Origin: Actinomycetota bacterium
GTDB lineage: Bacteria; Actinomycetota; UBA4738; HRBIN12
NCBI GenBank assembly: GCA_050692855.1
Contig: JBOGVO010000066.1
Coordinates: 1 to 36,445, forward strand
Direction: 5' to 3'
DNA length: 36,445 bases
Part shown: positions 13,954-35,835 of the stretch, piece by piece
Layout of the letters: each line of letters begins with the position of its first letter
Position numbering within the stretch: the first letter of the stretch is position 1
Made by a program: the position numbers and the translations under genes
Notes under the pieces: model-generated
What the model saw: the letters and a program-made list of their open reading frames with translations, nothing else
What the model was told of the DNA's origin: nothing
Databases searched by the model: none

Positions 13954-14328
13954 ATGACCGTTCGAGTGCTCATCGTGGACGACCAGGAGCCGTTCCGCAT
14001 GGCGGCCCGCATGGTCGTGGAAGCCACCGACGGGTTCGACGTCGTCGGCGAGGCCGAGACCGGCGAGGACTCGGTCACGATGGCGGCCGACCTGACTCCC
14101 GACCTCGTGCTGATGGACGTGAACCTGCCCGGCATCAACGGCCTCGACGCGACCCGGCAGATCCTCGTTGGAGGCGACGGTACGGTCGTCGTGTTGCTGC
14201 TCTCGACGTACGAGGAGGAGGAGTATGCGCCGCGGGCCGCCGAGTGCGGCGCAGCCGCGTACATCCCCAAGGCCGTGTTCGGTCCGGACCGGCTCGAAGA
14301 CGCGTGGACCGCAGCATCGGGCGGGTGA
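13954..14328 (+). CDS. stand-alone receiver (REC) domain protein, NarL-type receiver without an HTH
   Basis: ATG 13954 has GTGGAGG 11 nt upstream. MTVRVLIVDDQEPF.., phospho-acceptor context LVLMDVNLPG, and conserved LLLST and YIPK positions. It stops right after helix 5 (124 aa), and no LuxR HTH follows. Confidence 0.85.
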   Translation: MTVRVLIVDDQEPFRMAARMVVEATDGFDVVGEAETGEDSVTMAADLTPDLVLMDVNLPGINGLDATRQILVGGDGTVVVLLLSTYEEEEYAPRAAECGAAAYIPKAVFGPDRLEDAWTAASGG

Positions 14329-14346
14329 GGCACGCCGAGCTCGACG

Positions 14347-16465
14347 TCAGGCGACCGGGACCGCTCCGGTCACGGTCGTGCCGGCCCCCGGCGAACTCTC
14401 GATCGTCACCGAACCTCCGATCGCGTCGATCCGGTCCGAGATGCCCTGCAGGCCCGAACCGTGCATGACGCCGGCCGCATCGAGCCCTCTGCCGTCGTCG
14501 GCCACGGCGAACTCGAGTGATCCGTTGCGCTGCCCGAGCGAGATCGTCACGCGCGATGCCTGGGCGTACTTGACCACGTTCTGCAGGGCCTCGAGGCACG
14601 AGAAGTAGACGGCGGCCTCCACTTCCTGCGGATAGCGGCCCACCGCGTCGGCCGTGACCGTGACCGGCGTCGGGGACTTCCTCCCTTGTGCCTCGAGCGC
14701 CGCTTCGAGGCCTTGGTCGGCCAGCAACGGCGGGTAGATGCCGCGCGCGAGGTCGCGGAGATCGTCGATCGCGGACCGCGTCTGCACCTGGAGCTGCGCC
14801 ATCATCTCGTGCGCCTTCGCCGGATCCCGCTCCATCAGGGAATCGGCGAGCCGCAGCTTGACCCCGAGCGCCACGAGCTGCTGTTGCGCGCCGTCGTGGA
14901 TGTTGCGTTCGAGCTTGCGTCGTTCCGCGTCCTGCGCGGTGACGAGCCGCTGCCGTGAGGCGCGGAGCTCCTCGATCAGCCGAACGTTCCGCAGCACCAA
15001 TCCGGCCTGGGCCGCGAGATCGCGCATCAGTCGCTGTCACGCGGGCCCCACCGGGTCGTTCTGGTGCGAGACGATCGAGAGCGCGCCGAGCAGTCCCTCG
15101 GTGGCGGACCTCGACCGCCGCGTCGCCGGGCAGGTCGGGAAGGGCGTTGGCCGTCTCGTGCACGGGCGGCGTCGCCGGCGCGTCAGGCGGCCACGCCGCC
15201 GCCGGGAGGAACGAGTCGCCCACGCGCAGCCAGATGCGAGCCTCTGCGGCTCGAACGCTCTCGCCGAGGACCGCGGCCATGCGCGGCAGCACATCGTCGA
15301 TCGCCTAGGCATCGGCGAGGCGTCCAGAGAATTCGGTGAGCGCTTCATAGGGGGTGGCCCGTCCTCCGTAGACCAGCCGGTCGGCGATGCGGCGCGCTAG
15401 ACGCCACAGCGCCGAGGTCAAGGCACCGATCACGAGACCGGTCAGTCCGATGGCCAGGGGTTCGTCCGCCGCGAGATCGGTCAGGGGGCCACTGATGAGC
15501 AGCAGCACCCCGATGCCGGCGACCATGATCAGCGCGACCGTGATCGCGAAGATCACGGTCTTCTTGATCACGAGATCGAGGTCGTAGAGGCGGAAGCGGA
15601 AGATCGCCACGGCCGTCGCGACGGGGATGCCCACCACGATCGTGATGACGAGTAGCACGATGAGCACGTTCGCGGCAGCCGCGGCGAACCCGGTCTCGCG
15701 GTTGCCGCTTGTGATGCCCGCGACGATGGTCGACGCGAACAGCACCCCGCCGATGCTGCCCACGGCGCCGAGCCAGCGGATCTGCTGTCGTTCCTCCGGA
15801 CCGGCGCTCCGCGCGCGGAAGATCAAGGAGGTCAGGGCGACGAAGGCGCTGGCGACCAGGAGCAGGCCGGTCACGGCCAGTGCGACCTCGAGGACGAGCT
15901 CGATGGGCTCGATGCCCACCGGGTTCGTCAGCACGACGCCGTCGATCTCGTGCCAGCTGAACGGTTGCACGGCGAAGCCGGCCACGGTCACGATGAGCGA
16001 CGCGCCGTAGATGCGCCACGGAACCCCGCCATCTGGGCGATGGGAGCGAGCCGGTCGGGTAGAGGAAGAAGACCGCCGGCAGCAGTCCCAGGCAGACGAA
16101 GAACGGCCATCGGCTGAGCCAGTTCGCCACCCCGACGAGCTCGAGGGGACGCTGTTGGTCGACCGCCGTGTCGACCCAGTTCTGCGCAGGTACCACGATC
16201 GCGAACGAAACCGCGATGCCCAGGAAGACCCATCCGACCGCGTTCCCGGTGCGCGACGCGATCAAGGCGCCCACCACGGCGAAGGCGAGGCCGCCGAGCA
16301 TCCCGGGCACGATGAGGACGGTGTCCTCCGCGCCGATCCCCTGTCCGGACGCGAGCCTCGCCGCGAACGGGATCGTCATCAGGACGATGCTCGCGACTGC
16401 CACGGATCGGCGAGCACCGCCCGCCGCGAAACGGTCGCGCGCTCCTCGCCGTCGCCATGCTGCAT
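14347..16465 (-). pseudogene. sensor histidine kinase paralogue A, disrupted (2-3 frameshifts plus 2 in-frame stops)
   Basis: Homology to intact copies B/C runs through four ORF fragments. There is a +1 G in the run at 16024-16027, just after PSPRWR. An in-frame TAG at 15305-15307 sits where paralogues have Tyr (LTEFSGRLADA*AIDDVLPRM). A frameshift at ~15093-15099 lies inside VEVRHRG(E)LLGAL. An in-frame TGA is at 15037-15039 (NDPVGPA*QRLMRDLAAQAGLVL). The likely ancestral ATG 16465 (GAGGAGGAAG 7 nt upstream) is out of frame with the first TM segments. The length of 2119 nt is 1 mod 3. Confidence 0.85.
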
Positions 16466-16553
16466 GGTCGAATCTTCCTCCTCGGAACACCGGTCGGGGA
16501 AGGAGGCTCTCCGGTGGCTCGTACGCCGGCCCCCCCTGGCGGAGCGTGAGCGT

Positions 16554-18674
16554 TCACATCGACGCGTCGCGGGTGATGGGGAGGCGTCCGCGGACCGTCG
16601 TGCCGCTCCCGGGGGTCGACGCGATCTCGACCTCGCCGCCGAGGGCCGAGAGGCGGTCGACGATCCCCAGCAGACCGGTCCCGAAGCTGGTGCCAGTCGC
16701 GTCGAACCCGCGGCCGTCGTCGGCGACCTCGAAGTGGAGTGCTCTGTCGCCGACCACGAGCCGTACGGTGGCCGAGGTCGCGTGCGCATACTTCGCCACG
16801 TTCTGCAGGGCCTCGAGCACGGAGAAGTACACCGTGGTCTCGGTCTCGGGCGGGAACCGACCGACCCCGTCGGCGTCGACCCTGACAGGCGTGGGGGACT
16901 TCCGCGCCTGCGCCTCGAGGGCGGCCGACAGCCCCCGGTCGGCGAGTAGCGGCGGGTAGATACCTCGCGCCAGATCTCGCAGATTCTCCAGTGCTTCGGT
17001 CAGGTCGTGCTGCAGATCCTCGAGCATCTCCTCGGTCCTCGCCGGGTCCTTCGCCGCGAGCCCGCCGGCGAGTCGTGCCTTCACCGACAGCGCGACGAGC
17101 TGCTGCTGGGCGCCGTCGTGGATGTCGCGCTCGAGCTTCTTGCGCCGGTCGTCCTGGGCGGCGACGATGCGGCGCCGCGACTCGCGCAGCTCCTCGATCA
17201 GGCGAACGTTCCGCAGCACGAGTCCGGCTTGGGAGGCCAGGTCGTGGACGATGCGCTGCCGCCCCGCGCCCATCGGATCGCTCGCCGCCATCTGTACCGA
17301 CAGGGCGCCGAGGAGCTCGCCCTGGTGTCGCACCTCGATCCCGTGCTCGCCGAGGGTTGCGTGGAAGTCGGGGAGGGTGTCGTCCGGCAGACGGATGGGA
17401 TCGACGCGGTCGGCGTCGACGGGCCAGGTCTGCGCCGGGCGGAGCTCCGATCCGACCCGGACCCACACGCGCGCCACCAAGGCGCCCGTCGCCTCGCCGA
17501 GCAGCTGGGCCATCCGTGGCAACACGTCCTCGGTCGAGTACGTCTCGCCGACCCGCTCGGAGAACTCGGTGAGGACCTCGTACGGGGTGGCCCGGCCACC
17601 GTAGACGATCCGATCCGCGATCCGTCGCGCGAGCCGCCAGAGCGGCCACACGGACAGGCCCACGATGAGGCCGGTGAGCCCGACGGCCTGCGTCTCGTCG
17701 GGTGCGAGGTCTGTGAGCGGGCTGCTGAGCGCCAGCAGGGTGCCGACCGAGACCGCCATCAGCAGCACGACCAGCACGCCGAACACGATCGTCTTCTTCA
17801 CGACGACGTCCAGTTCGTAGAGGCGGTACTTCAGGACCGCGACACCCATCGCGACCGGGACGCCGATCCCGATGAGCGCGAAGGCCACGATGAAGAACAG
17901 GTCCGCGGCCGGCGATCCGTCGTAAGAGGGCCCCATGACGAGCGCCGTCACGATGCCGGCCACGACCACCACGACCAGCGTGGCGGCGACGTACGCGAGC
18001 CATCGGATCTGTTGGCGCTCCTCGCCGGTCGACCTTCGGTAGCGCAGGACGAGCGCCGCGATCGCCGCCGGGACCGACAGGAACACCACCACGACGGCGC
18101 CCGCACCGCCCAGGATTTCGGGGACCCGCCCGAGCGCCTCGACTCCGAAGGGGCTGCTCAGCGTGACGTCGAGGCCGAGGTCCTCGAACGGGCTCGGGTT
18201 CAGCGCTGTGCCGAGAGCGGCCAGGGCCATGGCCGTTCCGAGGGTCCACGGCAGGAACCGCCATCGCGGGCCGGGCACGCGGCCCGTGGGGAACAACACC
18301 GCGAGCAGCGCCAAGCCGCCCATGATCGGCAGCCAGAGCATGTCCGACAACAGCGCCACCACGGGGCCAAATGCAGGGTCCGGTCGCGGGGCGGTCTCGT
18401 ACACGTACGTCAGGTACTCGCTGGATACGCCGGTGAACACGAAGGCGATGCCGATCGCGATCATCAGCCAACCGATCGGGTTGGCCGGGTTCCTCGACGC
18501 GAGCACGGCGCCGACGGTCGGGTACCCCAGGATCATCGCGACGGCGAGCGGCACGAAGTAGGGGTCCTCGGAGAGGCTGTCGTTGATCGCCACGAGCGTC
18601 ACGGTCGCGGCGAGCATGAGCACGCCGCCGCCCCACAGAAGCCACGGCAAGCGGGAGCGTCTCGCCTCCGTCAT
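16554..18674 (-). CDS. polytopic sensor histidine kinase paralogue B (multi-TM sensor, GAF-like, HisKA_3, HATPase_c)
   Basis: 706 aa. ATG 18674 overlaps the stop of C (ATGA). About 10 hydrophobic segments. Motifs are LFPTGRVPGPRWR, ERQQIRWL, LKYRLYELDVVVKKT and YGGRATPYEVL. H-box ERDIHDGAQQQLVAL, N-box EALQNVAKYA, DDGRGFD, GTGLLGIVDR. Confidence 0.92.
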   Translation of the reverse strand: MTEARRSRLPWLLWGGGVLMLAATVTLVAINDSLSEDPYFVPLAVAMILGYPTVGAVLASRNPANPIGWLMIAIGIAFVFTGVSSEYLTYVYETAPRPDPAFGPVVALLSDMLWLPIMGGLALLAVLFPTGRVPGPRWRFLPWTLGTAMALAALGTALNPSPFEDLGLDVTLSSPFGVEALGRVPEILGGAGAVVVVFLSVPAAIAALVLRYRRSTGEERQQIRWLAYVAATLVVVVVAGIVTALVMGPSYDGSPAADLFFIVAFALIGIGVPVAMGVAVLKYRLYELDVVVKKTIVFGVLVVLLMAVSVGTLLALSSPLTDLAPDETQAVGLTGLIVGLSVWPLWRLARRIADRIVYGGRATPYEVLTEFSERVGETYSTEDVLPRMAQLLGEATGALVARVWVRVGSELRPAQTWPVDADRVDPIRLPDDTLPDFHATLGEHGIEVRHQGELLGALSVQMAASDPMGAGRQRIVHDLASQAGLVLRNVRLIEELRESRRRIVAAQDDRRKKLERDIHDGAQQQLVALSVKARLAGGLAAKDPARTEEMLEDLQHDLTEALENLRDLARGIYPPLLADRGLSAALEAQARKSPTPVRVDADGVGRFPPETETTVYFSVLEALQNVAKYAHATSATVRLVVGDRALHFEVADDGRGFDATGTSFGTGLLGIVDRLSALGGEVEIASTPGSGTTVRGRLPITRDASM

Positions 18675-20788
18675 GGCAGCATCTCCTGCCGGAGCGACGT
18701 CGGCAGCCGACCCGACACGACGGTGCCTGCGGCGGGCGTCGACCGGATCTCGAGGTCCCCGCCGATCGCCGCGATCCGGTCGGTCATGCCCTGAAGGCCC
18801 GTGCCGCGGGCGGTCACGATCGGGTCGAACCCCACGCCGTCATCGAGGACCTCGAACGTCAATAACCCGTCTCGCTCTCTGAGCCGGACCGTCGTGGACG
18901 TGGCCCCCGCGTACTTGGCGACGTTCTGCAACGCCTCGAGGCACGAGAAGTACACGGCCGACTCGATCTCCTGCGGGTAGCGCCCGATCCCGTCGGGCTC
19001 GACGGTGGTGGGCACCGTCGCCCTCCGCGCCTGCGCCTCGAGGGCCGCGGCGAGGCCCTGGTCGGCCAGCAGCGGCGGGTAGATGCCGCGCGCGAAGTCG
19101 CGCAGGTCCTCCAGCGTCTCGGTGGCCTGGGTCTGGAGCTCTGCGAGCATGGTCTGCGCACGCTCCGGGTCGTGCCCTGCGAGCTGTTCGGCCAGGCGCA
19201 ACTTGACGGTGAGCGCGACGAGCTGCTGCTGCGCGCCGTCGTGGATGTTCCGCTCGAGCTTCTTCGCTCGCTCGTCCTGGGCAGCCACGATCCGGTGCCG
19301 CGACTCGCGGAGCTCCTCGATCAGGCGGACGTTCCGCAAGACGAGCCCGGCTTCGGATGCGAGTCCGCGCAGGATCCGCTCCTTCGAGGGGTTCATCGGG
19401 TCGCTCGATGCCATCTCGACCGTGAGGGCGCCGAGCAGCTCCCCCCGGTGACGCACCTCGAAGGCCTCCTCGCCGAAGTCCGGCAGGGCGTCGCCCGTGA
19501 CGCGCAGGGCGCGACGGCGATGGGCCTCGCCCGGCCAGGCCGCGGCCTCGCGAAGCTCCCCGCCTACGTGCAGCCACACCCGGGCGATCCGCGCGCGCGT
19601 GGCCTGGCCGAGCAACTGCGCCATGCGCGGCAGGACGTCCTCGGTCGAGTAGGTCTCGCCGACCCGCTCCGTGAAGTCGGAGAGCACCTCGTACGGGCTG
19701 GCGCGGCCACCGTAGACGACCCGGTCGGCCATGCGCCTCGCGAGTCGGTAGAGAGGCCAGACGAGCATGCCGATCACGAGCGTGACGATGCCGCCGGCCT
19801 GGGTGTCCTCGCCACGAGCACCCCGCGTCAGCACGCTGCCCACCACGACGAAGATGAGCACGCTGACGGCCATGATCAGCATGATCAGCACCGCGAAGAC
19901 CACGGTCTTCTTCACGACGACGTCGAGGTCGTAGAGGCGGTACTTCAGGATCGCGATACCGCAGGCAGCGGGGATCCCGAACATCAGCACGAGGAAGAAT
20001 CCGAAGAACGTGAGGTTGCCGACGACGTCGGTCTCGCCGACCTCGAACCCCAGCGCGGTCCGGATGCCCCAGCTTGCCAACCCGAGCACGAGGATCGCGA
20101 CCAGCAGCGCACCGACGAACGCGAGCCAGCGGATCTGCTGACGCTCCTCTTCCTGGGAGCGGCGGAATCGGAGCACGAGCGAGACCACGGCGAGCACCGA
20201 GCAGGCGAAGGCGACGAGACCCGCGATCCCGGTCACACCCTCCACGACGCCCCTCCACGCGAGCGGAAGCGCGAACGGGTTCATGACCGTGGCGTCGAAC
20301 TCGGCGAAGACGGCATCGATCCGGCCCGGAGTCAGCGCGAAGAGTGTCAGGTTGATCGCGAGCGCGGCGAGCAGCACGAGCAGGATCGGACGCCACCGCG
20401 GGCCGGGAACGCGTCCGGTCGGGTAGAGCAGGAACAGCAGTGGGATCGGTGCGAGGATGAACCCGAACCCGGCACGTCCGATCCACGCCGCCGCACCGGC
20501 GGCTGGCAGATCGACGCCGTCGTCGAACACCGAGCTGGCGTACACACCCGAGGCCAACGAGACCGCGAGCGCGAGCCCGATCCACGCCAGGAGCAGGCCG
20601 ATCCGGTTGTCGGGAGCCCTGGACGTGATCAACGCACCGACGGTCGCGTACGCGAGCATCGTCGGCGGCAGGACCGCGTAGGCGAACACGCCGGCCGGCG
20701 CCGAGTCGCGCAGATCGAGGAACAGCCACGCCACGAGCAGGATCATGGTGACGGCCCAGATCGCCCAGGCGACTCGGCGGGCGGTCAT
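18671..20788 (-). CDS. polytopic sensor histidine kinase paralogue C
   Basis: 705 aa. ATG 20788 overlaps the stop of D (ATGA). Same motif set: LYPTGRVPGPRWR, ERQQIRWL, LKYRLYDLDVVVKKT, YGGRASPYEVL, ERNIHDGAQQQLVAL, EALQNVAKYA, DDGVGFD, GTGLQGMTDR. Confidence 0.92.
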   Translation of the reverse strand: MTARRVAWAIWAVTMILLVAWLFLDLRDSAPAGVFAYAVLPPTMLAYATVGALITSRAPDNRIGLLLAWIGLALAVSLASGVYASSVFDDGVDLPAAGAAAWIGRAGFGFILAPIPLLFLLYPTGRVPGPRWRPILLVLLAALAINLTLFALTPGRIDAVFAEFDATVMNPFALPLAWRGVVEGVTGIAGLVAFACSVLAVVSLVLRFRRSQEEERQQIRWLAFVGALLVAILVLGLASWGIRTALGFEVGETDVVGNLTFFGFFLVLMFGIPAACGIAILKYRLYDLDVVVKKTVVFAVLIMLIMAVSVLIFVVVGSVLTRGARGEDTQAGGIVTLVIGMLVWPLYRLARRMADRVVYGGRASPYEVLSDFTERVGETYSTEDVLPRMAQLLGQATRARIARVWLHVGGELREAAAWPGEAHRRRALRVTGDALPDFGEEAFEVRHRGELLGALTVEMASSDPMNPSKERILRGLASEAGLVLRNVRLIEELRESRHRIVAAQDERAKKLERNIHDGAQQQLVALTVKLRLAEQLAGHDPERAQTMLAELQTQATETLEDLRDFARGIYPPLLADQGLAAALEAQARRATVPTTVEPDGIGRYPQEIESAVYFSCLEALQNVAKYAGATSTTVRLRERDGLLTFEVLDDGVGFDPIVTARGTGLQGMTDRIAAIGGDLEIRSTPAAGTVVSGRLPTSLRQEMLP

Positions 20789-22824
20789 CTGCGGGCCTCC
20801 GTCGTGTTCACGGTCGTCCTCCCTATCACGCCGGCGACGATGGTGCCCTGACGAGGGATGCTTCGCACGTCGACCTCTCCACCGAGTGCGGCCAGCCGGT
20901 CGGTGATGCCCTGCAAGCCGGTGCCGGCGTGCACATCGGCCACATCGAAACCGACACCGTCATCCTCGACCTCGAACCGAAGCTCGCCGCCGCCCTCGTT
21001 GAGTCGGACGTCCACGTGCTCTGCCCGGGCGTACTTCGCGACGTTCTGCAGCGCCTCCAGCACCGAGAAGTAGACGGCTGACTCCACTTCTTGCGGGTAA
21101 CGGCCGACGCCGTCGGTGTCGACCCCGACCGGCACGGCCGCCTTCCGCGCCTGCGCCTCGAGGGCGGCTCCCAGGCCCTGGTCCGCCAGCAGCGGCGGGT
21201 AGATGCCGCGGGCGAGGTCGCGGAGGTTCCCGAGCGCGTCGTTCGTCTCGGCACGGATCTCCGCGAGCATCAACCGGGCCTGCTCGTCGTCCTCCCCGAC
21301 GAGCGACTCCGCCAGGCGCTGCTTCACCGCGAGGGCCACGAGCTGCTGCTGTGCCCCGTCGTGGATGTCGCGCTCGAGCTTCTTCGCCCGCTCGTCCTGG
21401 GCCGCGACGATGCGCCGTCGGGACTCGCGCAGATCCTCCACGAGCCGCACGTTCCGTAGCACCAGCCCCGCCTGGGCGGCGAGGTCGCCAACGAGCTTCT
21501 CCGTGGCGGGGTTCATCGGATCGTTGGAGGGCATCTCGACCGAGAGGGCTCCCAGCATCTCGCCCCGATGCGAGACCTCCACCGCACCGGTCGGGAGCGA
21601 CTTCACAGCGGTCTCCATGGGCCACGAGGCCGCGGGCCGCATCCGCCCGTCGAGCATCAGCCACACCGTCGCGCTGGAGGCCCCCGTGCCCTGTCCGAGG
21701 ATCTGCGCCATGCGGGGGAGCACGTCGTCGGCCGCGTAGGCTCCTCCCATCCGCTCCGAGAACTCGGTCAGCACCTCGTACGGCGTCGCGCGCTTGCCGT
21801 ACACGACGCGGTTCGCGAGTCGCTGTGCCCACCGGCGCACCGGCTGGAACGCGATCGCCACGACCGCGGCCGCGATCGCGGACAGGAACGCATTGCCGAC
21901 GTTTTCGGCGAGCGCACCGATACCTACGACGAACCCGATGTAGACGAGCGTGATGAACCCACCGAGCACGCCGTAGACGACCGCCTTCGAGATCACGAGG
22001 TCGATCTCGTAGAGGCGGTAGCGCAGGATCGCGATGCCGGCCGCCACGGGAAGGGCCGCCACGCCGAATTGCACGACCAAGGCCACGAGGAACGAGTCCT
22101 GGAGCGGCGTCTCGTGGGTTACGGCCGACAGGAGGTATCCCAGGGCGAGGAACACGGCCGCGAGGGCGAACCACTTCATCTGCTGTCGCTCGACGCCGGC
22201 CGCTCGCCGGAACCGCATCACCATCGAGACCGCGGCGGCGATGAGCGCGATCGGAAGCAGGACCCACCCGACACCCCCCTCGTCGAGCAGCGACCCGTCG
22301 AGGGCGTCGACCCCGAGCGGGTTGACGACGTCCTCCTGACCCGGGATCGGTCCCGGCGTGAGCGTGAATCCCGCGACCAGCGTGACGGCCGCGACCACGT
22401 CGATCCAGACGGCGATCCTCCACCGCGGGGAGAGGAGCCGTCCATCCGGGAACAGCAGCATGACCAGGGTCTGGAGCGCGAGCCCGACGAGACCGAACGA
22501 TGCGGTCAGGGTCGCCCACTCCCGGCCGGGCAGTGGCGGGTTCGCGTCGCCGTACGTGCCGCCAAGAGTGGCGAGTCCGGTCGCGAGCCCGATCGCGCAG
22601 AACAACCAGCCGATCCGGTTCTCGGGCTGTCGAGTGGCGATCAGCACGCCCATCACCGGGAAGGTCGCGAGCACGGTCGCGAACAGCACGTCCACTACCG
22701 GAGGCGTGTCGAGCTGATCCGACAACGTGTCGGTCGCAACGCCCAGGGCCGCGCCGGCGGCCAGGGTCGCGAGCGCGAGCCCACCGAGGATCCACGCCAG
22801 CCGTCTCGCTGTGGGTGCCTCCAT
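20785..22824 (-). CDS. polytopic sensor histidine kinase paralogue D (first gene of the D-C-B(-A) operon)
   Basis: ATG 22824 (MEAPTARRLAWILGG) has GAGGTG just upstream. The 45 codons further upstream in ORF 20785..22959 look non-coding. 679 aa. Motifs are LFPDGRLLSPRWR, ERQQMKWF, LRYRLYEIDLVISK, YGKRATPYEVL, ERDIHDGAQQQLVAL, EALQNVAKYA. Confidence 0.9.
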   Translation of the reverse strand: MEAPTARRLAWILGGLALATLAAGAALGVATDTLSDQLDTPPVVDVLFATVLATFPVMGVLIATRQPENRIGWLFCAIGLATGLATLGGTYGDANPPLPGREWATLTASFGLVGLALQTLVMLLFPDGRLLSPRWRIAVWIDVVAAVTLVAGFTLTPGPIPGQEDVVNPLGVDALDGSLLDEGGVGWVLLPIALIAAAVSMVMRFRRAAGVERQQMKWFALAAVFLALGYLLSAVTHETPLQDSFLVALVVQFGVAALPVAAGIAILRYRLYEIDLVISKAVVYGVLGGFITLVYIGFVVGIGALAENVGNAFLSAIAAAVVAIAFQPVRRWAQRLANRVVYGKRATPYEVLTEFSERMGGAYAADDVLPRMAQILGQGTGASSATVWLMLDGRMRPAASWPMETAVKSLPTGAVEVSHRGEMLGALSVEMPSNDPMNPATEKLVGDLAAQAGLVLRNVRLVEDLRESRRRIVAAQDERAKKLERDIHDGAQQQLVALAVKQRLAESLVGEDDEQARLMLAEIRAETNDALGNLRDLARGIYPPLLADQGLGAALEAQARKAAVPVGVDTDGVGRYPQEVESAVYFSVLEALQNVAKYARAEHVDVRLNEGGGELRFEVEDDGVGFDVADVHAGTGLQGITDRLAALGGEVDVRSIPRQGTIVAGVIGRTTVNTTEARR

Positions 22825-22928
22825 GCCGCACCTCGACGTATGTGTCCAACGTGACGAGCGTGGCACTTCGACGACCGGAGTCCAAGGGGGGGACCCTGCC
22901 CGCTTCCGCGCCGGAACATCACCGTCAG

Positions 22929-22945
22929 AGTGGTGCTGGCACCAC
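22929..22945. promoter_or_regulatory. 7-2-7 inverted-repeat operator candidate, copy 2 (AGTGGTGCTGGCACCAC)
   Basis: Perfect palindrome GTGGTGC-TG-GCACCAC at 22930-22945. It lies 104 nt upstream of the kinase D ATG and 76 nt upstream of the divergent USP ATG. It is near-identical to 13887-13903. Confidence 0.55.
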
Positions 22946-23021: not shown

Positions 23022-23429
23022 ATGACGACGATCGTGGTGGGAACCGATACCTCGCCGGCGGCTGACCTCGCGGTGGACGACGCGGCGAGGCTGGCGCGCG
23101 ACCGCGGTGCGGAGCTCGTGATCCTCTACGTGGGGAGCGGTGACGGGCTGCGGTCGGTGGTGGACCCCGCCCGGGCTGCCGACCCCGGCCGGCACCTCGC
23201 GGCGATGGAGGCCCGCTACCCGGAGCTCAGGGTGCACACGCGGATGGAGGAGGGTGACCCGGCCGAGACGATCTGCGACGTCGCGGAGCAAGAGCGCGCG
23301 GAGACCATCGTGGTCGGCAACCGAGGCACGCACGGCTCGTGGTGGCGGGTGCGCGACAGCGTGCCGAACCTCGTCCTGCGCTACGCACCGTGCAGCGTCT
23401 ACATCGCCGACACGCGGAGGGCGCAATGA
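23022..23429 (+). CDS. universal stress protein (UspA family)
   Basis: ATG 23022 is preceded by GGAAGGAGG (23005-23013). MTTIVVGTDTSPAADLAVDDAARLA ... IVVGNRGTHG ... VPNLVLRYAPCSVYI is the typical USP fold signature. 135 aa. Confidence 0.88.
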   Translation: MTTIVVGTDTSPAADLAVDDAARLARDRGAELVILYVGSGDGLRSVVDPARAADPGRHLAAMEARYPELRVHTRMEEGDPAETICDVAEQERAETIVVGNRGTHGSWWRVRDSVPNLVLRYAPCSVYIADTRRAQ

Positions 23430-23453
23430 CAAGCGAGGCGAGCCTACGCTTGT
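23429..23453. terminator. possible bidirectional hairpin between convergent USP and response-regulator genes
   Basis: ACAAGCG (23429-23435) and CGCTTGT (23447-23453) form a 7-bp stem with an 11-nt loop that spans both stop codons. There is no clear U-tract, so this is weak. Confidence 0.25.
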
Positions 23454-24112: not shown

Positions 24113-24120
24113 GCGCGGAT

Positions 24121-24134
24121 GGTACACGTGCACC
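24121..24134. promoter_or_regulatory. near-palindrome GGTACACGTGCACC centred on CACGTG in a 44-bp divergent intergenic region
   Basis: 12 of 14 positions are self-complementary. It sits between the regulator start (24112, minus) and the REC-HTH-cyclase start (24157, plus). Confidence 0.35.
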
Positions 24135-24156
24135 CCCAGGCCGGAAGGCGAGCGGC

Positions 24157-27509: not shown

Positions 27510-29631
27510 TGGAGGGTCGATCGACGCCGGTGCGCTCCCGGTCGCCGGCCCACCCGGCGCGGTGGCCGTGGGTCGTGTTCGCGTCGTTCCTCTCCGCGGC
27601 AGTCCTCGGCCTCGTCCTCGTCGCCGCGAACGAGGCCTCGATCGGCGAGCAGATGCCGTTCGTCGTGGCGTTCTCGATGTTCGGCGTCGTCGGCGCGCTC
27701 ATCGTGAGCCGTGAGCGCAGGAACGTGATCGGTGGCCTGCTGCTGTACGGATCGTTCGCCACCGCGCTTTCCTTCGTGGCCGGCGAGCTCTTCACCTGGC
27801 TCGTGTCGCGCGGTTCGACCGGTGCGCTCGCCCAGGTCATGGGCCTGCTGTCGTCCCTCGGCTGGTTGTTCGGGATCCTTCCCGTGCTGTTCGTGCTGCC
27901 GCTGTTGTTCCGGACGGCCGTCTTCCGTCAGCTCGGTGGAGGCCGTTCCTGTGGCTCATCCTCGCGAGCCTGGCGCTCATGTTCGTCGGCCTCGCGTTCG
28001 GTGAGCCGCTGCTGTCAGGGTCCAACGAACGCCCGACGATCCCCAACCCCCTGTACATCAGCGCGCTCGACGCGGCCCGGATACCAGACGCCGTCTTCGG
28101 GCTCCTCTACTTCGGCATCTTCGCGACGTCGGTGGCCTCACTGTTCGTTCGGTTCCGCGGGTCGAGCGGGACCGAACGGCAGCAGATCAAGTGGGTCGCG
28201 TTCGGCGTCCTCGCAGGCTTCGTCGCCGCCTTCCTCAGCGACGCGATCGCCGGCGAGCCCTTGCTGAGCGCGGTGGTCGGCGGAGCCGGTTTCCTCGCCT
28301 TCCCGGTCTCGATCGGCATCGCGGTCCTGCGGTTCCACCTCTACGACCTCGACGTCCTCGTCCGGAAGACCGTGCTGTACGCGGCGCTCGCCCTCTTCGC
28401 GACGCTCGTGTACCTCGCGGTCGTGGTCGGCGTGGGGGCATGGCTGGGCAGGGGGAGCTCGGTCCTGACGATGATCGCGGCCGTCGTCGTGGCCGTGACC
28501 TTCCAGCCCGTCCGAGCGCTGGTGACGCGGTTCGCCGACCGGCTCGTGTACGGGAAGCGCGCCACGCCCTACGAGGTGCTTTCGGATTTCTCCGAGCGCG
28601 TCGGCGGCGCGTACGCGGATGAGGACGTGTTGCCGCGCATGGTCCGGGTGCTCGGCGAGGGGGTCGGGGCGGAACGAGCCGACGTCTGGCTCGCCGTCGA
28701 AGGCGAGCTCCGGGACGTCGCGACGTGGCCGTCGGATGCCGCTACCAGGCAGCCGATCCGCACGACGGAGGGATCCGGACCGACCACCAACGGGATCGAG
28801 GGCGGATTCCCGGTCGAGCACGCGGGCCAGTTGCTCGGCGTCCTGGCGGTGGTGAAGCCCGCGAACGATCCCCTGACTCCCGCCGACGAGAAGCTGGTCA
28901 CCGATCTCGCCGCCCAAGCCGGACTCGTCCTTCGGAACGTCCGGCTCACCGAGGAGCTCCTGGCGCGTCTCGACGACCTCCCGGGCGGCCCAGAAACGTC
29001 TCGTCAACGCCCAGGACGAAGGGCGACGCCGGCTCGAGCGAAACATCCACGACGGGGCGCAACAACAGCTCGTCGCCCTCACGGTGAAGTCTCGCCTGGC
29101 GCGATCGATCGCCCGGCGCGACCCCGCCAAGGCGCTCGAGGTGCTCGGCCAGATCGAGGCCGAGACACAGGAAGCGCTCGAGGACCTGCGCGACCTGGCT
29201 CGAGGGATCTACCCTCCCCTCCTAGCCGACAAGGGCCTTGCGGGCCGCCCTCGAGGCGCAGGCGCGCAAGTCACCCCTGCCCGTGATGGTCGAGGCCGAC
29301 GGTGTCGGGCGCATTCCGCAGGAGATCGAGGCGGCTGTGTACTTCTCCGCCCTCGAGGCTCTGCAGAACACGGCGAAGTACGCTGAGGCATCGTCGGCGA
29401 CGGTCTCGCTCCGGCGTTCGAACGGGGCGCTCTGGTTCTCGGTCACCGACGACGGCCGGGGGTTCGATCCAAACGCGACCGAGGGGCGGAACCGGTCTGC
29501 AGGGCATCGCGGACCGACTGGGTGCGCTCGACGGCACCTTGGAGATCGAGAGCAGTCCCGGAGCGGGCACGACGGTGACGGGACGGGTGCCTGTGCAGGC
29601 TGGCGAGCGCGACGAAGGGCGGACGGTGTGA
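27506..29631 (+). pseudogene. sensor histidine kinase paralogue F, disrupted by four single-base indels
   Basis: GTG 27506 overlaps the E stop (GTGA). Homology to E hops through frames 2>1>2>0>1. There is a -1 at ~27910-27912 (LLF[P]DGRLPSARWR), a +1 at ~28980-28982 (LDDL|RAAQKRLV), a +1 at ~29241 (DKGL|AALEAQARKSP) and a +1 in the G-run at 29483-29486 (NATE|GTGLQGIADR). The length is 2126 nt, which is 708 codons plus a net +2. Confidence 0.85.
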
Positions 29632-29825: not shown

Positions 29826-29840
29826 TCCGATCGAGACTAG
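29822..29840. terminator. possible bidirectional hairpin embedding both convergent stop codons
   Basis: CTAGTC (29822-29827) and GACTAG (29835-29840) form a 6-bp stem with a 7-nt loop. Both TAG stops (29823-29825 plus strand, 29837-29839 minus strand) lie in the arms. The stem is weak. Confidence 0.2.
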
Positions 29841-31978
29841 TTACGCCGTCGCACGAGGTCGATCACGAGCGCGAGCGTCAGCAGCAGCGCACTCGCACCG
29901 AACGCTCCCGGCAACCAGCCCGGCACCCGGTCGCTGACCGCCGTGAGGGCCGTGCCCAGGATCGCCGCGCCGGCGGTGAGCGCGAGCGCCAGCCGCCGCC
30001 CCGCGCGCCGGATCGTCGTCTCGAGCGTCGCCGCGCGGAAGTTCACCTCGAGCTTCTGGCCGGGGCGCGCCCCGATCAGGCGCTCGACGGCTTCCACGAC
30101 CCGGTGGAACCGCACCTTGAACCGTTGCGCCTGGTAGAAGAGCGCCTTCGGATCGGCCTTGCTCGTCATGTCGCGAACGAGCGCCCGCATCAGGAACGAT
30201 CCCGCCACGTCGAACGGGTCGAGCTCCGGGTCGAGCTCGGCCGTGGCGAGCTGCATCTGCGCGAGTGCCTTCCCGGTGAGCGCGAGCGACGCCGGCAGGG
30301 GCACCTCGTGGCGGAGCGAGATCTCCGTCACCTCCTGCAGGATCGGCCCGAGCTGGATGTCGGCGAGCGACGCCGTGCGGTACTTGGCGACCATCGCACC
30401 CATCTCCTCGCCGAACGCGTCGACGTCGAGATCGGTGCGGTCCATCGCCCCGGCGAGCATCAGCGTCACGTCGGTGAGGAACGAGACGTCCTCCTGCCAG
30501 AACGCCATCAGCAGCAGCAGGAGCTGCTCGCGCATCTCGGGGCTGACCTCGCCGATCATGCCCAGGTCGAGCAGGTACAGGCGCTCCTCCGCAGGTTGCC
30601 ACATCAGGTTGCCCGGGTGCGGGTCGGCGTGGAAGAACCCGTCGACCATGATCTGCTTGTAGAAGCTCTCGAGCAGCTGCCGGGCGGCTTCCTTGCGCGG
30701 GGTCCCCTCGGGCGCGATCGAGATCGGCCCTCCCTGCACGTCCTGCATCACGAGCAACCGGGAGGTCGACAGATCGGCGTGCACCACCGGCACCCGCAGC
30801 CTGGGGTACTGGGCGATGCTTTCGCGCAGGCGCTCGATGTTGCCCGCTTCCTGCCGGAAGTCGAGCTCGCGGTGCAGGGAGTCGGACAGATGCTGGAAGA
30901 CGGCGTGCATGTCGATCACCTGACGCAGGCCCGGGCGGGCGGAGACCTTCTCAGCGAAGACCTCGAGCAGCGCGAGATCCTGTTCGATCTGCTCCCGGGC
31001 ATCGGGGCGTTGCACCTTCACCACGACCGGGTCGCCGGTGGCGAGGGTGGCGCGGTGGACCTCGGCGATCGTGCCGGCGGCTAGCGGGGCCGGGTCGATG
31101 TGTTCGAAGACGTCCTCCCAGGGCACGCCGAGCTCCTGCTCCATGACCTCCACGACGTCCTGCTCGCTCAGGGGCGGCACGTTGTCCTGCAGGGTCGCGA
31201 GCTCCTCGATGTATTCGGGCGGAAGCAGGTCCGGCCGCGTGGACAGGATCTGCCCGAGCTTCGCGAAGGTGGGGCCGAGCTCCTCGAGGGCGGCGCGCAG
31301 ACGTTTGCCCTGGCGCCTCCGCCCGACCGCGCCCTCCTCGTCGGGACGGCCGAACAGTTCCTTCAGGCCGTGTTTGGCGAAGACGGCGGCGATGCGGCCG
31401 CCGCGCGCCGTGAGCCGCGGGGTGAACTCCGTCTCCTCGGCGGCGCTGATGCGCACCTGGGCCGAGGTGGGCGAGGGCGTGTTGGCGACGACGTGCCCGT
31501 CTCCGGCCGTGTTGACGATGATCACGGTGCAGCGGGCGTTGTGGCTGATGCGGTTCGGCACGTTGCCGAGCAAGAACTCCTTGCGTCCAGCCATGCCCGC
31601 GTTCCCGACGACCAGCACGTCGATGGCGTGCTCCTCGGTGGCCTCGACGATCGCCATCGCCGGGTCGTCGTGGATCACGACGTGGCCGTGTCCCCGGTCC
31701 CCCGCCACCGCCCGGGCGTAGGTCTGCAGGTCGTCGGCGGCCGAGCGGGCGCGGGTGACCTCCGCCGCCCCGTACTCCGTGTCGGCTCGGCTCGTCGGCA
31801 CGATCACCTGTACCACGTGGAGCTCGGCACCGAACGCCTCGGCGAACGTCGCAGCCCATCGCACGGCGCGTTCGGCGGTCTGTGAGCGGTCGGTGCCGAC
31901 CATCACGCGCTCGATCGGGCCGGCGATCTGCGGCTGGGCCTCGGCGTTCATGGGCGCATCATGGCGGTTCGGAGCCAT
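29837..31978 (-). CDS. USP domain fused to ABC1/UbiB-family atypical kinase, with C-terminal membrane anchor
   Basis: ATG 31978; the alternative is ATG 31951. The ORF portion upstream of these overlaps the SGNH gene. USP: ERVMVGTDRSQTAERAVRWA ... LVVGNAGMAGRKEFLLGNVPNRISHNARCTVIIV. ABC1: FAKLGQILSTRPDLLPPEYIEELATLQDNVPP, AEVHRA, VVKVQRP, HADPHPGNL, LLDLGMIG. Two terminal hydrophobic helices. Confidence 0.85.
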   Translation of the reverse strand: MAPNRHDAPMNAEAQPQIAGPIERVMVGTDRSQTAERAVRWAATFAEAFGAELHVVQVIVPTSRADTEYGAAEVTRARSAADDLQTYARAVAGDRGHGHVVIHDDPAMAIVEATEEHAIDVLVVGNAGMAGRKEFLLGNVPNRISHNARCTVIIVNTAGDGHVVANTPSPTSAQVRISAAEETEFTPRLTARGGRIAAVFAKHGLKELFGRPDEEGAVGRRRQGKRLRAALEELGPTFAKLGQILSTRPDLLPPEYIEELATLQDNVPPLSEQDVVEVMEQELGVPWEDVFEHIDPAPLAAGTIAEVHRATLATGDPVVVKVQRPDAREQIEQDLALLEVFAEKVSARPGLRQVIDMHAVFQHLSDSLHRELDFRQEAGNIERLRESIAQYPRLRVPVVHADLSTSRLLVMQDVQGGPISIAPEGTPRKEAARQLLESFYKQIMVDGFFHADPHPGNLMWQPAEERLYLLDLGMIGEVSPEMREQLLLLLMAFWQEDVSFLTDVTLMLAGAMDRTDLDVDAFGEEMGAMVAKYRTASLADIQLGPILQEVTEISLRHEVPLPASLALTGKALAQMQLATAELDPELDPFDVAGSFLMRALVRDMTSKADPKALFYQAQRFKVRFHRVVEAVERLIGARPGQKLEVNFRAATLETTIRRAGRRLALALTAGAAILGTALTAVSDRVPGWLPGAFGASALLLTLALVIDLVRRRN

Positions 31979-32036
31979 TGCGACCAGATGGGTCTGCACC
32001 GCATCTCCGAAGATCGACCATGCGTCGAGGACCACC

Positions 32037-32966: not shown

Positions 32967-33130
32967 GGAACCCTCCCGCGGCTCGACGGATGGGCCGACG
33001 GTAGGCATCGCACGAGGCGACCGCATCGATGACAACCCGCGCCGTCGCTGGGGGATACCCCTGATGACCCCGGACTCGAGAGGTGGCAGGATGAGCGACG
33101 CCCGCGAACGATGCCGTCGACCGAGGCCGC

Positions 33131-35185
33131 ATGGGGAGGGGCTCAGTGTTCAGGCCGATCAGGGCGATCGCGCTCGCGATATCGACGCTCGCGATGCTGC
33201 TGGTCATCGCGTCCGCCGTGCTGTTCACCCAGGACGGCGCCTTCGGCGGCGATCCCGTCTCCAACGCGCTCGGCCTGGCGGGGATCGCCTGCTACGTGGT
33301 GATCGGCGGGTTGATCGCGTGGCGCCTTCCCGAGAACGCCTGTGGATGGCTCCTGCTCCTGGTCGGGGGCGGGCTGGCGGCCGCCATGTTCTCGGACGCG
33401 CTGGCGACGTATGCGCTGAGAGAGGGCTTCGCGACGCTCGCGTCGTGGGCGGACTGGGCGAACGCGATGCTCTTCTTCGTGACCCTCGCGGGGATCCCGC
33501 TCTACCTCCTCGCGTTCCCCACGGGGCGTCCTCCGTCGCCGCGCTGGCGGCCGGTCGCGGTCGTCGTCATCGCCGTTGCGGTTGTGGGAACGCTCGTCAA
33601 CGCGCTGGCGCCCTCGGGCGACCTCGAGGTCGAGAATCCCATCGTCGTGGCCAGCATCGCGCCGGCGCTGGAGGCGCTGAGAGCCGCGCTCACGTTCGCG
33701 TTCGTCGCGGCTGCGGTGCTCTGTGTGGCGTCGCTCGTCGTTCGATGGCGGCGGGCCGTCGGGCTGGAACGGCAGCAGCTTCGGTGGGTCGTCGTCGTCG
33801 GAGTGCTGGCGGCGGCGTTGCTGCTCGGGTCGATCGCCTTCGGCGTGCTCGGTCTCCATCGCGTCGGCGACCCGCTGGGGGTCGCGTTCGTCCTGACGTT
33901 GACCACGGGCCTCCCGGTCTCGGCGGGCATCGCGCTGCTCAAGCATCACGTCCACGGCATCGAGGTCGTGGCGAACCGCTCGATCGTGTACGGCGCGCTC
34001 GCGGCCTTCATCACGTCGTTGTACGCGGTCATCGTGGCCGGAGTCGGGGCCGTCGTCGGTCGCAGCGAACGTGCGAACGTCCTGCTGGCGGTCGCCGCGA
34101 CGGTCGCGGCCGCCATCATCGTCCATCCCGCTCGGCAGCGAGCCCAGCGGTTCGCCGACCGGATAATCTACGGGGACCGGGCGTCCCCGTACGAACTCGT
34201 GTCGACGTTCACCGAGCGGCTCGACGTCGCGTCACTCGACGACGTGTTGCCGCAGATGGCCGAGCTCGTCGGCCAAGGGTCGGGCGCGCAGGCCGTTCGC
34301 GTATGGCTCCGATCCGGCGCCACGCTCCGGGCCGCGGCCGGCTGGCCGGCCGGCGCCGCACGGCCTTCGCCGGTACCGCTCGACGGCGGCGAGCTCCCGA
34401 TGTCCTTCGAGGATGCGTTCCCGGTTCGCCACGGCGGGCACCTGCTCGGTGTGATCACCGTCGAGATGCCGCCGCAGGAGCCGATGACGCCCGCGACGGA
34501 GCAACTGATCGCCGATCTCTCGGCGCAGGCCGGCCTCGTGTTGCGAAACGTCTCGCTCGTCGAGGAGCTGCAGCTGTCGCGTCAGCGATTGGCGACGTCG
34601 CACGACGAGGAACGACGACGTCTCGAGCGTGATCTGCACGACGGAGCACAGCAACGGCTGGTCGCGCTCTCGATGGAGCTTCGCGTGGCTCGCTCGCGAG
34701 CGGTCGAGGGTGGCGATGCCGAGCTCTCGACGAGGCTCGACTCCGCGGCAGGCGAACTCACCCGGTCGCTCGCGGAGCTCCGCGAGTTGGCGCGCGGCAT
34801 CCACCCCGCCATCCTCACGCAGAACGGTCTGGGCGCGGCGCTCCGATCGTTGGTGGAACGGTCCTCCGTCCCCGTGGAGCTCAGGTGCGTTCCCGAAGGC
34901 CGCTTCGTGCCCGAGGTGGAGGCGACGACCTACTTCCTGGTGTCCGAAGCGCTCGCGAACGTGGCGAAGCATGCCGATGCCTCCCTCGCGTTCGTCTCCG
35001 TTCGCGACGAGGCCGACCATCTCGACATCGACGTGACCGACGACGGCCGGGGAGGCGCGGAGATGAACGGCGGCAGCGGGCTCCGTGGTCTCGCCGACCG
35101 CGTCGGGGCGGTCGGCGGCCGGATGGACGTTCGAAGCCAACCCGATTCCGGCACCACGGTGCACGCTGAGATCCCGTGCGCGTAG
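33131..35185 (+). CDS. polytopic sensor histidine kinase paralogue G (most divergent copy)
   Basis: ATG 33131; an in-frame GTG at 33146 has the better SD, GGGGAGGGG at 33133-33141. Retained motifs are AFPTGRPPSPRWR, ERQQLRWV and YGDRASPYELV. H-box ERDLHDGAQQRLVAL, then GIHPAIL, N-box EALANVAKHA, DDGRGG, GSGLRGLADR. Confidence 0.9.
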   Translation: MGRGSVFRPIRAIALAISTLAMLLVIASAVLFTQDGAFGGDPVSNALGLAGIACYVVIGGLIAWRLPENACGWLLLLVGGGLAAAMFSDALATYALREGFATLASWADWANAMLFFVTLAGIPLYLLAFPTGRPPSPRWRPVAVVVIAVAVVGTLVNALAPSGDLEVENPIVVASIAPALEALRAALTFAFVAAAVLCVASLVVRWRRAVGLERQQLRWVVVVGVLAAALLLGSIAFGVLGLHRVGDPLGVAFVLTLTTGLPVSAGIALLKHHVHGIEVVANRSIVYGALAAFITSLYAVIVAGVGAVVGRSERANVLLAVAATVAAAIIVHPARQRAQRFADRIIYGDRASPYELVSTFTERLDVASLDDVLPQMAELVGQGSGAQAVRVWLRSGATLRAAAGWPAGAARPSPVPLDGGELPMSFEDAFPVRHGGHLLGVITVEMPPQEPMTPATEQLIADLSAQAGLVLRNVSLVEELQLSRQRLATSHDEERRRLERDLHDGAQQRLVALSMELRVARSRAVEGGDAELSTRLDSAAGELTRSLAELRELARGIHPAILTQNGLGAALRSLVERSSVPVELRCVPEGRFVPEVEATTYFLVSEALANVAKHADASLAFVSVRDEADHLDIDVTDDGRGGAEMNGGSGLRGLADRVGAVGGRMDVRSQPDSGTTVHAEIPCA

Positions 35186-35835
35186 TGGTGGCCGATGACG
35201 CCGTGCTGTTCCGCGAGGGTCTCGCGCGATTGCTCGGCGACGCGGGATTCGATCTGGTCGGCCAGGCGGCCGATGCCGACGAGCTCCTCGAGATCATCCG
35301 TCAGGCGCCTTCGGATCGACTCCCGCAGGTGGCTGTGGTGGACATCCGCATGCCCCCGTCGCATACCACCGAGGGTCTTGTCGCAGCGAGAACGATCCGC
35401 GCGGAGCATCCGGAGATCGGCGTGCTCATCCTGTCCCAGTACGTTGAGACCGAGCACGCGATGGAGCTCTTGGGAGACGGCGCAGGTGGCACCGGCTACC
35501 TGCTGAAGGACCGGGTCTCGGACCTCGAGGGGTTCCGTGAGGCGGTGCAGCGAGTGGGCGGCGGCGGTTCCGTGGTCGATCCCGAGGTGATCGGGCAGCT
35601 GATCGGCCGTCGGCGCGCGACGGATCCGATGGCCGATCTGACGGAACGCGAGCGCGAGGTCCTCGCGCTCATGGCTGAGGGATACTCCAACCGGGCGATC
35701 GGTGCGGGCCTGTTCCTGAGCGAGAAGACGGTGGAAGCCCACGTGCGAGGCATCTTCACGAAACTCGGACTCCTGCCGACCACGGACGAGAATCGACGCG
35801 TCCTCGCCGTGCTGGCCTTCCTGCGTTCGGCGTGA
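35176..35835 (+). CDS. NarL/LuxR-family response regulator
   Basis: GTG 35176 overlaps the last 10 nt of kinase G. MRVVVADDAVLF, VAVVDIRMPP, GYLLKDRV, and HTH LTEREREVLALMAEGYSNRAIGAGLFLSEKTVEAHVRGIFTKL. Confidence 0.92.
   Translation: MRVVVADDAVLFREGLARLLGDAGFDLVGQAADADELLEIIRQAPSDRLPQVAVVDIRMPPSHTTEGLVAARTIRAEHPEIGVLILSQYVETEHAMELLGDGAGGTGYLLKDRVSDLEGFREAVQRVGGGGSVVDPEVIGQLIGRRRATDPMADLTEREREVLALMAEGYSNRAIGAGLFLSEKTVEAHVRGIFTKLGLLPTTDENRRVLAVLAFLRSA

Follow-up and report, generated by a model that had tools for sequence, protein, structure and literature searches.

The window analyzed here is the whole of a 36,445-nucleotide contig (JBOGVO010000066.1, 70% GC) from an Actinomycetota bacterium. 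It includes a conserved gene island in which six paralogous histidine kinases (A to F) are located beside three response regulators: a single-domain receiver (REC-only), a NarL-type regulator (NarL1), and a receiver joined to a helix-turn-helix (HTH) region and a cyclase domain (REC-cyclase). The island thus has more kinases than receivers. From gene neighborhood and sequence conservation, we propose with moderate confidence that it is a conserved multi-input system in which replaceable sensor kinases share the three receivers and have both transcriptional and cyclic-nucleotide outputs. Its interest lies in a frozen receiver core set against a fluid sensor repertoire, in a large uncharacterized sensor family, and in a conserved operator with a predicted regulator.

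The original prediction, made from the letters of the window, treated seven kinases and four receivers as one integrated signalling locus. Integration is supported by a gene order that recurs in at least 12 metagenome-assembled genomes (MAGs) and by a palindrome common to two promoters. However, the unit consists of six kinases and three receivers; the seventh kinase (G) and its regulator (NarL2) are outside the island and form a separate pair.

Conservation of the island

Proteins of the window were mapped on 80 related loci of species-representative genomes and on loci from an exact look-up. The order of the island is holB, a variable segment, REC-only, kinases, a universal stress protein (USP) gene, NarL1, REC-cyclase, kinases, and a gene that fuses a USP domain to an ABC1 kinase (USP-ABC1). 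This order is found in at least 12 MAGs (loci L004, L006, L009, L015, L018, L021, L027, L028, L035, L042, L048, L052, and L086). The left array holds zero to six kinases and the right array one to three, which gives one to eight or more per locus beside the same three receivers, and the number differs even among close relatives. Compared with the window, REC-only is 81-91% identical, NarL1 78-94%, REC-cyclase 70-93%, USP-ABC1 62-93%, and holB 60-79%, and the kinases are mostly 35-60% identical. The closest genome, represented by L086, has a REC-cyclase that is 93% identical and a holB product that is 79% identical, with two left and three right kinases, yet only A (79%) and F (73%) have clear orthologs there.

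The lineage that carries the island consists of uncultured, soil-associated Actinomycetota, and an array with variable copy number is the rule within it. Consecutive kinase genes without interleaved regulators, which had been called an unusual layout, are therefore ordinary in this lineage. REC-cyclase homologs at 83-93% identity make up more than 120 of the clusters listed, and 6,822 proteins pass E<=1e-20; judging by the cluster counts, the lineage seems to be widespread in soil metagenomes.

A simpler arrangement occurs in nine loci from Acidimicrobiia and Streptosporangiaceae, in which a single kinase of the family is directly beside REC-only and NarL1 homologs and a REC-HTH-cyclase gene is 2-7 kb off. 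In two further loci from these groups, the unit is partial or rearranged. One kinase with REC-only, NarL1, and REC-cyclase is probably the ancestral unit, and nothing speaks more strongly for use of the local receivers by the arrayed kinases than this single-kinase unit. Among cultured organisms, Pseudonocardia yuanmonensis JCM 18055 (L083) carries the single-kinase module, and Nonomuraea has kinase-regulator pairs of the family.

Kinase genes and operons of the window

Searches with tblastn, using the five intact kinase copies as queries, find exactly seven related loci in the window. As had been predicted, tblastn, Pfam, and alignment agree that these are paralogous HisKA_3 kinases of one family. 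Kinases B (706 aa, positions 16554-18674), C (705 aa, 18671-20788), and D (679 aa, 20785-22824, ATG at 22824) on the minus strand, and E (25443-27509, ATG at 25443) and G (33131-35185) on the plus strand, are each encoded by one continuous open reading frame (ORF). Kinases A (14347-16465, minus strand) and F (27506-29631, plus strand) are spread over several frames.

Starts and stops overlap by 4 bp at the D/C, C/B, cyclase/E, and E/F junctions, and G and NarL2 overlap by 10 bp. These overlaps imply the operons D-C-B-(A), headed by D, cyclase-E-(F), and G-NarL2. Operons of kinases alone do therefore exist, as claimed, by virtue of the D/C and C/B overlaps. Ribosome-binding sites back the starts of A, D, E, and REC-only, and the start of A is also backed by the alignment to its intact ortholog.

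Variable sensors on similar kinase cores

In no locus does a pair of paralogs exceed 54% identity, and the paralogs of the window are 35-54% identical to each other. In a neighbor-joining tree, the nearest neighbors of most window copies are kinases from other genomes rather than fellow window copies. Tree placement and the 54% ceiling together imply that the family is old and differentially retained, rather than recently amplified. The tree and a comparison with the closest genome were used for this purpose because clustering at 65% identity, which over-splits orthologs, left almost every array kinase alone.

The variation is concentrated in the membrane modules, which are 27-43% identical among window paralogs, as opposed to 58-74% for the cores of A to F. 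Kinase E has a membrane module and GAF-like domain nearest to L086 HK4 and a core nearest to HK3, HK5, and F. These pairwise identities suggest that sensor and kinase modules have recombined. More generally, comparison of the sequences suggests that the sensor set changes through loss (A, probably F), differential retention, and module exchange.

Anatomy of the kinases

Each of B, C, D, E, and G matches PF07730 (HisKA_3) with 45-51 bits (cut-off 24), and the intact kinases match PF02518 (HATPase_c) with 31-43 bits (cut-off 26.4). The H-box and N-box motifs quoted in the original prediction are visible in the alignment. The H-box, ER(D/N)(I/L)HDGAQQ, is present in the intact copies and also in A and F, and the N-box (EALxNxAKxA) and G-boxes (DDGxGF...GxGLxG) are likewise present. 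Kinases B to E retain the catalytic His, the N-box, and the G-boxes in intact form. The proteins thus have the features of HisKA_3 kinases (HPK7, NarX/DesK-type), with a HisKA_3 dimerization and histidine phosphotransfer (DHp) domain, HATPase_c, and NarL/GerE-type neighbors, the last as judged by adjacency alone. Among solved structures, the sequences nearest to the kinase core are DesK (E = 1.5e-9), followed by the ATP-binding domains of DevS/DosT and VraS.

The N-terminal membrane module comprises about 345 aa and about 10 helices according to hydropathy and an AlphaFold2 model of B (residues 1-500, pLDDT 87), rather than the roughly 380 aa first estimated. In the model, B is predicted to have about 10 transmembrane (TM) helices (residues 9-358), a short helical linker, an alpha/beta domain (381-461), and a long helix that leads into the DHp domain, and it continues with HisKA_3 and HATPase_c. 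Pfam finds nothing above threshold in the N-terminal 350 aa. With Foldseek against the PDB, the helical part of B has no significant relative, only generic 7TM/G-protein-coupled receptor matches (target TM-score 0.33-0.44, E>0.02). A 5+5 internal duplication of the module was considered and rejected, as hhalign of the two halves gave a probability of 1%.

The modeled alpha/beta domain resembles GAF structures (Foldseek probability 1.0, with a weak E of ~6e-3). Matches include 3ci6, 3e0y, 2vzw, and 3o5y, with target TM-scores of 0.5-0.6, and the GAF domain of DosT is among them. The Pfam GAF model matches 27 of 47 family members at E<=0.05; G scores 23.9 bits (cut-off 22.4), and the match of E is weak. 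As modeled, the domain has four strands and is shorter than canonical GAF domains. No His or Cys within it is conserved across the family.

When the N-terminus is set inside by the positive-inside rule, the motifs PTGRxPxPRWR, RRSxxEERQQIRW, and KYRLYDLD map to predicted cytoplasmic loops. These loops are the most conserved parts of the module, with scores of 0.8-0.87; outer loops and most helices score 0.4-0.5, and helices 2, 3, and 8 are intermediate at 0.59-0.73.

A profile of the module built from the seven window copies matches 27,767 clusters at E<=1e-3 in a search of 1.84 billion representatives, 17,294 representatives at E<=1e-10, and 5,986 at E<=1e-30. Homologs are plentiful in soil-type metagenomes and in MAGs labeled Actinomycetota, Actinomycetes, or Thermoleophilia, where they are annotated just as 'histidine kinase'. 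An exact-protein look-up of C retrieves only one 2.9-kb contig. Some of the homologs P0241, P0256, P0278, and P0308 have two tandem membrane modules of about 340 aa before GAF-HisKA_3-HATPase_c, and in P0308 a TM-GAF module is fused straight to a class III cyclase domain.

A palindrome at two promoters of the island

The palindrome was detected by aligning orthologous upstream regions. In an alignment of 15 loci, a GGTGCTGGCACC core is conserved upstream of the USP gene in otherwise diverged DNA. In the window, this core is part of a larger element, the perfect 16-bp palindrome GTGGTGCTGGCACCAC (22930-22945), which is located in the divergent promoter region between D and the USP gene. A copy with one mismatch, GTGGTGCTGGCATCAC, is located at 13888-13903, 58 nt 5' of the REC-only ATG, and the element is kept in 12 of the 14 aligned REC-only upstream regions. 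Some 22 nt farther on, the REC-only upstream regions also conserve TGGGACGCT, which is consistent with an extended -10 element. The putative REC-only -10, GACGCT (13926-13931), would place the center of the palindrome about 42 nt upstream of the transcription start. A generic search for inverted repeats in the intergenic regions found nothing; it missed the palindrome because the arms are just 7 bp.

A count over the 1.48 Mb of fetched loci gives 22 sites that deviate by no more than two mismatches; palindromes with shuffled arms average 1.2 sites and never exceed 6. All 22 are intergenic, and 18 precede a REC-only, USP/kinase, REC-cyclase, or solitary family kinase gene by no more than 400 nt. 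These 18 include sites in Acidimicrobiia and Pseudonocardia loci. Sites beyond the window include L052:1840, L086:3609 and 8316, L071:6716, L082:7240, and L083:16682. From the sequence, we infer that one of the system's HTH proteins, most simply NarL1, binds the palindrome as a dimer.

For NarL1, an extended -10, TGTACCAT, is likewise conserved; only 6 nt separate it from the ATG (24113-24124, minus strand), and the transcript is probably leaderless. A purine-rich block, CAAGGGGGGG, which resembles AAGGAGG, is also conserved in the alignment of the D/USP intergenic region (22881-22890); no start codon follows it.

Receivers, cyclase, and universal stress proteins

Pfam recovers the four receivers that had been predicted. 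REC-only is a 124-aa protein (13954-14328, plus strand; Response_reg, 79 bits) in which the acidic pocket DD, the phospho-acceptor Asp54, the Ser/Thr, and the Lys are intact, and the phospho-acceptor pockets of all four receivers are intact. NarL1 (23444-24112, minus strand) and NarL2 (35176-35835, plus strand) are NarL-type regulators, and both consist of REC and a GerE HTH. REC-cyclase (24157-25446, plus strand) consists of a NarL-like REC, a retained GerE-like HTH, and Guanylate_cyc. The receiver domains of NarL1 and REC-cyclase are paralogs with 56% identity. The start codons of these two genes are 44 bp apart on opposite strands.

The cyclase domain matches PF00211 with 92.7 bits. Both metal-binding Asp residues and the transition-state Asn and Arg are present, and FSDIRGFT, GDA, and VNVASR align with CyaB (3r5g) and Cya2 (2w01). 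The adenine-specifying Lys is absent: Gln occupies its position (GTIDQFQGDA), and Thr occupies the second position. Gln is also present in L004, L006, and L048, and most orthologs have Lys and Thr.

Two USP domains, the cyclase, and an ABC1 kinase are interspersed among the kinase genes, as originally described. One USP domain is the 135-aa USP gene, which is divergent from D (23022-23429, plus strand). It was called from its ORF and from a positional ortholog in L004 with a precomputed Pfam Usp match, and orthologs at the same position are 60-71% identical. The other is the N-terminal domain of the USP-ABC1 protein, an ABC1/UbiB-type atypical kinase fusion (29837-31951, minus strand, true start 31951) that is 93% identical to its L086 ortholog. 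Its USP domain carries a G-2x-G-9x-G motif, and the protein may be an effector of the system. USP-ABC1 also has C-terminal hydrophobic helices, and it always ends the island.

Two disrupted kinase genes

Both A and F had been called pseudogenes; for A this is correct, and for F it is probable. Relative to its L086 ortholog, A has frameshifts at codons ~20 (-1), ~147 (+1), and ~458 (-2), and it also contains two in-frame stops. Identity to this intact ortholog (79% for protein and 81% for DNA) is evenly spread along the gene. Thus, A is a genuine pseudogene.

Kinase F, in contrast, is a mosaic. Four frameshifts, one -1 and three +1, occur at codons ~130, ~486, ~573, and ~653, as located by tblastn and alignment to the ortholog at L086:15600-17708, and all three insertions are within the last ~700 nt. 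These ~700 nt are 94-99% identical in DNA to the ortholog, whereas the first 600 nt are 47-63% identical. Overall, the 3' segment matches L086 at 96% in DNA, as opposed to 77-90% for other genes and 73-90% over the remainder of the locus. By part of the protein, identity is 56% for the membrane module, 83% for the linker and GAF-like domain, and 96% for the core (73% overall). Third-base identity in the 3' segment is 96% (with codon register shifted by the indels), compared with 55-77% in every other gene compared. The mosaic therefore reflects either a recent lineage-to-lineage recombination of the kinase-core segment or a chimeric assembly. That F is a pseudogene is thus probable rather than certain.

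The other called genes of the window have no frameshift or premature stop. The remaining long ORFs are unbroken and have the expected Pfam domains, with lengths equal to those of L086 orthologs where these are present.

G and NarL2 are a separate pair

Kinase G has the same architecture as A to F, but its core is only 42-46% identical to theirs, and it branches deeply in the neighbor-joining tree. It also differs at about a dozen DHp positions that are common to A to F and to the single kinases of Acidimicrobiia. Pairs that resemble G and NarL2 are found in Nocardioides antri and Dormibacteraeota, and the L086 island ends without G. By these sequence comparisons, G and NarL2 are a separate, ordinary, and ancient cognate pair that is located next to the island.

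A proposed shared-receiver network

The invariant core of the proposed system would be REC-only, NarL1, REC-HTH-cyclase, the small USP, and the USP-ABC1 kinase. Each kinase might respond to its own membrane-associated or lipophilic cue by means of its variable membrane module, and all array kinases would phosphorylate or dephosphorylate the same three receivers. Indirect support for shared receivers comes from their recurrent linkage to one or many kinases and from the DHp residues that the array kinases have in common with the single kinases of Acidimicrobiia. At GTGGTGCTGGCACCAC, phosphorylated NarL1 would activate transcription of REC-only and from the divergent kinase/USP promoter. REC-cyclase would turn the same input into a cyclic-nucleotide signal, which may be read by nucleotide-binding USP domains, and REC-only could serve as an induced phosphate sink or connector. 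USP domains are known to bind cAMP in mycobacteria (PMC11107214), and the link between cyclic nucleotides and USPs in the island may hold by this analogy only.

Several observations weigh against the proposed network. Gene neighborhood and residue conservation, from which the partners are assigned, also reflect common descent, and most of the DHp positions shared by A to F belong to the consensus of HisKA_3 domains in general. In L002 and L003, close homologs of B are solitary, with no nearby receivers, so a family member can function with a partner encoded elsewhere. The loci are homologous by descent, so the 22 palindrome sites are not independent events, even if the DNA around them is not conserved. 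Within the window, the palindrome was not found upstream of NarL1, REC-cyclase, or USP-ABC1. The product or activity of the cyclase in this genome is uncertain, because Gln replaces the adenylyl-cyclase Lys. Finally, the jump in identity at the 3' end of F could reflect chimeric assembly rather than biology.

In L003, a 677-kb metagenome contig, a heliorhodopsin gene (12646-13431) adjoins the solitary B homolog.

If the proposal holds, the island would be the main multi-signal integration device of its lineage, and the NarL-derived receiver-cyclase would tie a phosphorelay to cyclic-nucleotide and USP signalling in Actinomycetota. It would also be a natural network whose inputs are gained, lost, and recombined around a frozen output core, and thus a model for the evolution of signalling specificity and insulation. 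A bolder version is offered only tentatively, as we consider it doubtful. According to this version, the ten-helix module (~340 aa) and its mini-GAF domain are a large unrecognized family of receptors for membrane or lipophilic ligands, and the island is a hot-swappable repertoire in which new sensor modules recombine with a conserved kinase core and all signal, through a dedicated operator, to one fixed core of transcription factor, receiver-cyclase, and REC sink. The island would then be the bacterial equivalent of a receptor gene family that can expand and that feeds a second messenger. The sensor domain itself lacks a Pfam model and spans about 27,800 representative clusters.

Alternative explanations

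The kinases might instead be tandem duplicates that pair one-to-one with regulators encoded elsewhere. In that case, the clustering would be a side effect of duplication, and among the kinases only E (with the cyclase) and G (with NarL2) would use a neighboring receiver. The solitary homologs of B without an adjacent receiver fit this idea, as do the many family members elsewhere that adjoin a single NarL-type gene (L038, L039, L055, and L080). Nevertheless, we find it unlikely. The trio of REC-only, NarL1, and REC-cyclase accompanies the kinases across classes, single-kinase loci included; D, C, and B are translationally coupled; and the promoters are linked by a shared operator. Moreover, the absence of a recent paralog pair (maximum 54%) implies that the cluster has long been kept together.

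Perhaps, alternatively, the paralogs act on each other, as heterodimers or mainly as phosphatases in the manner of RetS and GacS, and the array tunes one pathway without adding signals. The almost identical DHp helices of A to F would permit heterodimers, and regulation of one kinase by another is known in other systems (PMC5992135, PMC8498467). However, the sequences of B to E, with their complete set of catalytic motifs, give no sign of lost kinase function, and the sensor module is the variable part, as expected of distinct inputs. We therefore regard mutual regulation as quite improbable.

It is less plausible still that the kinases are receptors for lipophilic cell-cell signals, like ComP, and that the variability of their modules is a pherotype-like diversification. 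ComP does have the same overall plan, with about 10 TM helices, PF07730, PF02518, a variable N-terminal domain, and a conserved regulator (PMC4008528), and the regulators of the island likewise vary far less than its sensors. Yet no gene resembling comQ or comX, or any other signal-synthesis gene, is found in the window or related loci. In addition, ComX is said to bind ComP at an extracellular portion (PMC4008528), and the outer loops predicted for the island kinases are short.

That the array, or at least its pseudogenes, is a metagenome assembly artifact joining paralogs or strains is scarcely credible: the single-base insertions and high identity at the 3' end of F and the many fragmented kinase matches in nanopore-derived related loci would suit it, but the gene order is repeated in at least 12 independent assemblies (some with contigs >0.8 Mb), paralogs that are 35-54% identical cannot be collapsed or confused in assembly, A has two nonsense substitutions and evenly ~81% identity to its ortholog, and the other called genes are free of such lesions.

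Other features of the window

Upstream of the island are topA, a fusion of MFS transporter and thymidylate kinase, and holB, and a tRNA-Thr gene is downstream. An Rfam scan of the window found the tRNA alone. The MFS-thymidylate kinase fusion is a single 679-aa ORF (9586-11625) between topA and holB, and it is also kept in L004, L048, and L086. An amino-acid permease ORF (35-2245, 736 aa) has a Pfam domain limited to residues 18-387, which leaves a long C-terminal half uncovered.

Comparison with known systems

Literature searches on HisKA_3 tandem arrays, on receiver-cyclases with HisKA_3 partners, and on HisKA_7TM found no description of the island. Its layout, sensor domain, and shared operator are undescribed, and its component parts are familiar. 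None of the known systems compared here agrees with it in defining features. The nearest Pfam family for the membrane module is below threshold: HisKA_7TM (PF16927, gathering score 28.6) gives 20.2 bits with D and 21-23 bits with P0280 and P0328, in matches that are near full-length and cover helices 2-8, and it matches just one of 47 aligned family members at E<=0.05. HisKA_7TM is itself without known function (PMC5847659). The intramembrane-sensing kinases of the LiaS/BceS type, which have two TM helices joined by a very short linker and usually an ABC transporter or LiaF as partner, share only short outer loops with the island kinases; the latter have about 10 helices and no adjacent transporter or LiaF.

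The original prediction named Dos-type logic as the nearest analogy, and the resemblance is loose. The DosS/DosT-DosR and OsdK/OsdR systems, like the island, combine GAF and HisKA_3 kinases with a NarL-type regulator and nearby USP genes. Dos kinases are soluble and have tandem heme-binding GAF domains. The island kinases, in contrast, have a 10-TM membrane anchor and a single truncated GAF-like domain without a conserved heme ligand. A Dos box (GGGACTnnAGTCCC-type palindrome) is absent from intergenic DNA of the window, which has one chance-level match in a coding region, and the sequence of the island operator is different.

DesK/DesR of Bacillus subtilis is similar in that a polytopic HisKA_3 kinase with almost no extracellular domain has a NarL-type partner. 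DesK has five helices and no GAF domain. The membrane modules have no detectable sequence relation, and the DesK system is one kinase with one regulator. ComP/ComA also resembles the island in architecture, the only aspect compared: about 10 TM helices, HisKA_3 and HATPase_c, a hypervariable sensor, and a conserved regulator (PMC4008528). Unlike ComQXPA, the island has no comQ or comX in the window or syntenic loci, and it has short outer loops, a GAF-like domain, many paralogs, and three receivers.

Two-component networks of the multikinase or multiple-input-multiple-output type are an established design (PMC5992135, PMC12051241, PMC12757749, PMC8749435), and the concept of several kinases acting on shared regulators has already been described (PMC5992135, PMC12757749). 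In KinA-E/Spo0F, DosS/DosT-DosR, RocS1/S2-RocA1/RocR/RocA2, and GacS/RetS, several kinases are likewise associated with few shared receivers, and there is more than one type of output. In contrast to these networks, the kinases of the island belong to one paralogous family, are encoded in kinase-only operons beside the receivers, and vary in number. The island, for which we infer the same convergence, also differs from them in that one of its outputs is a receiver-cyclase.

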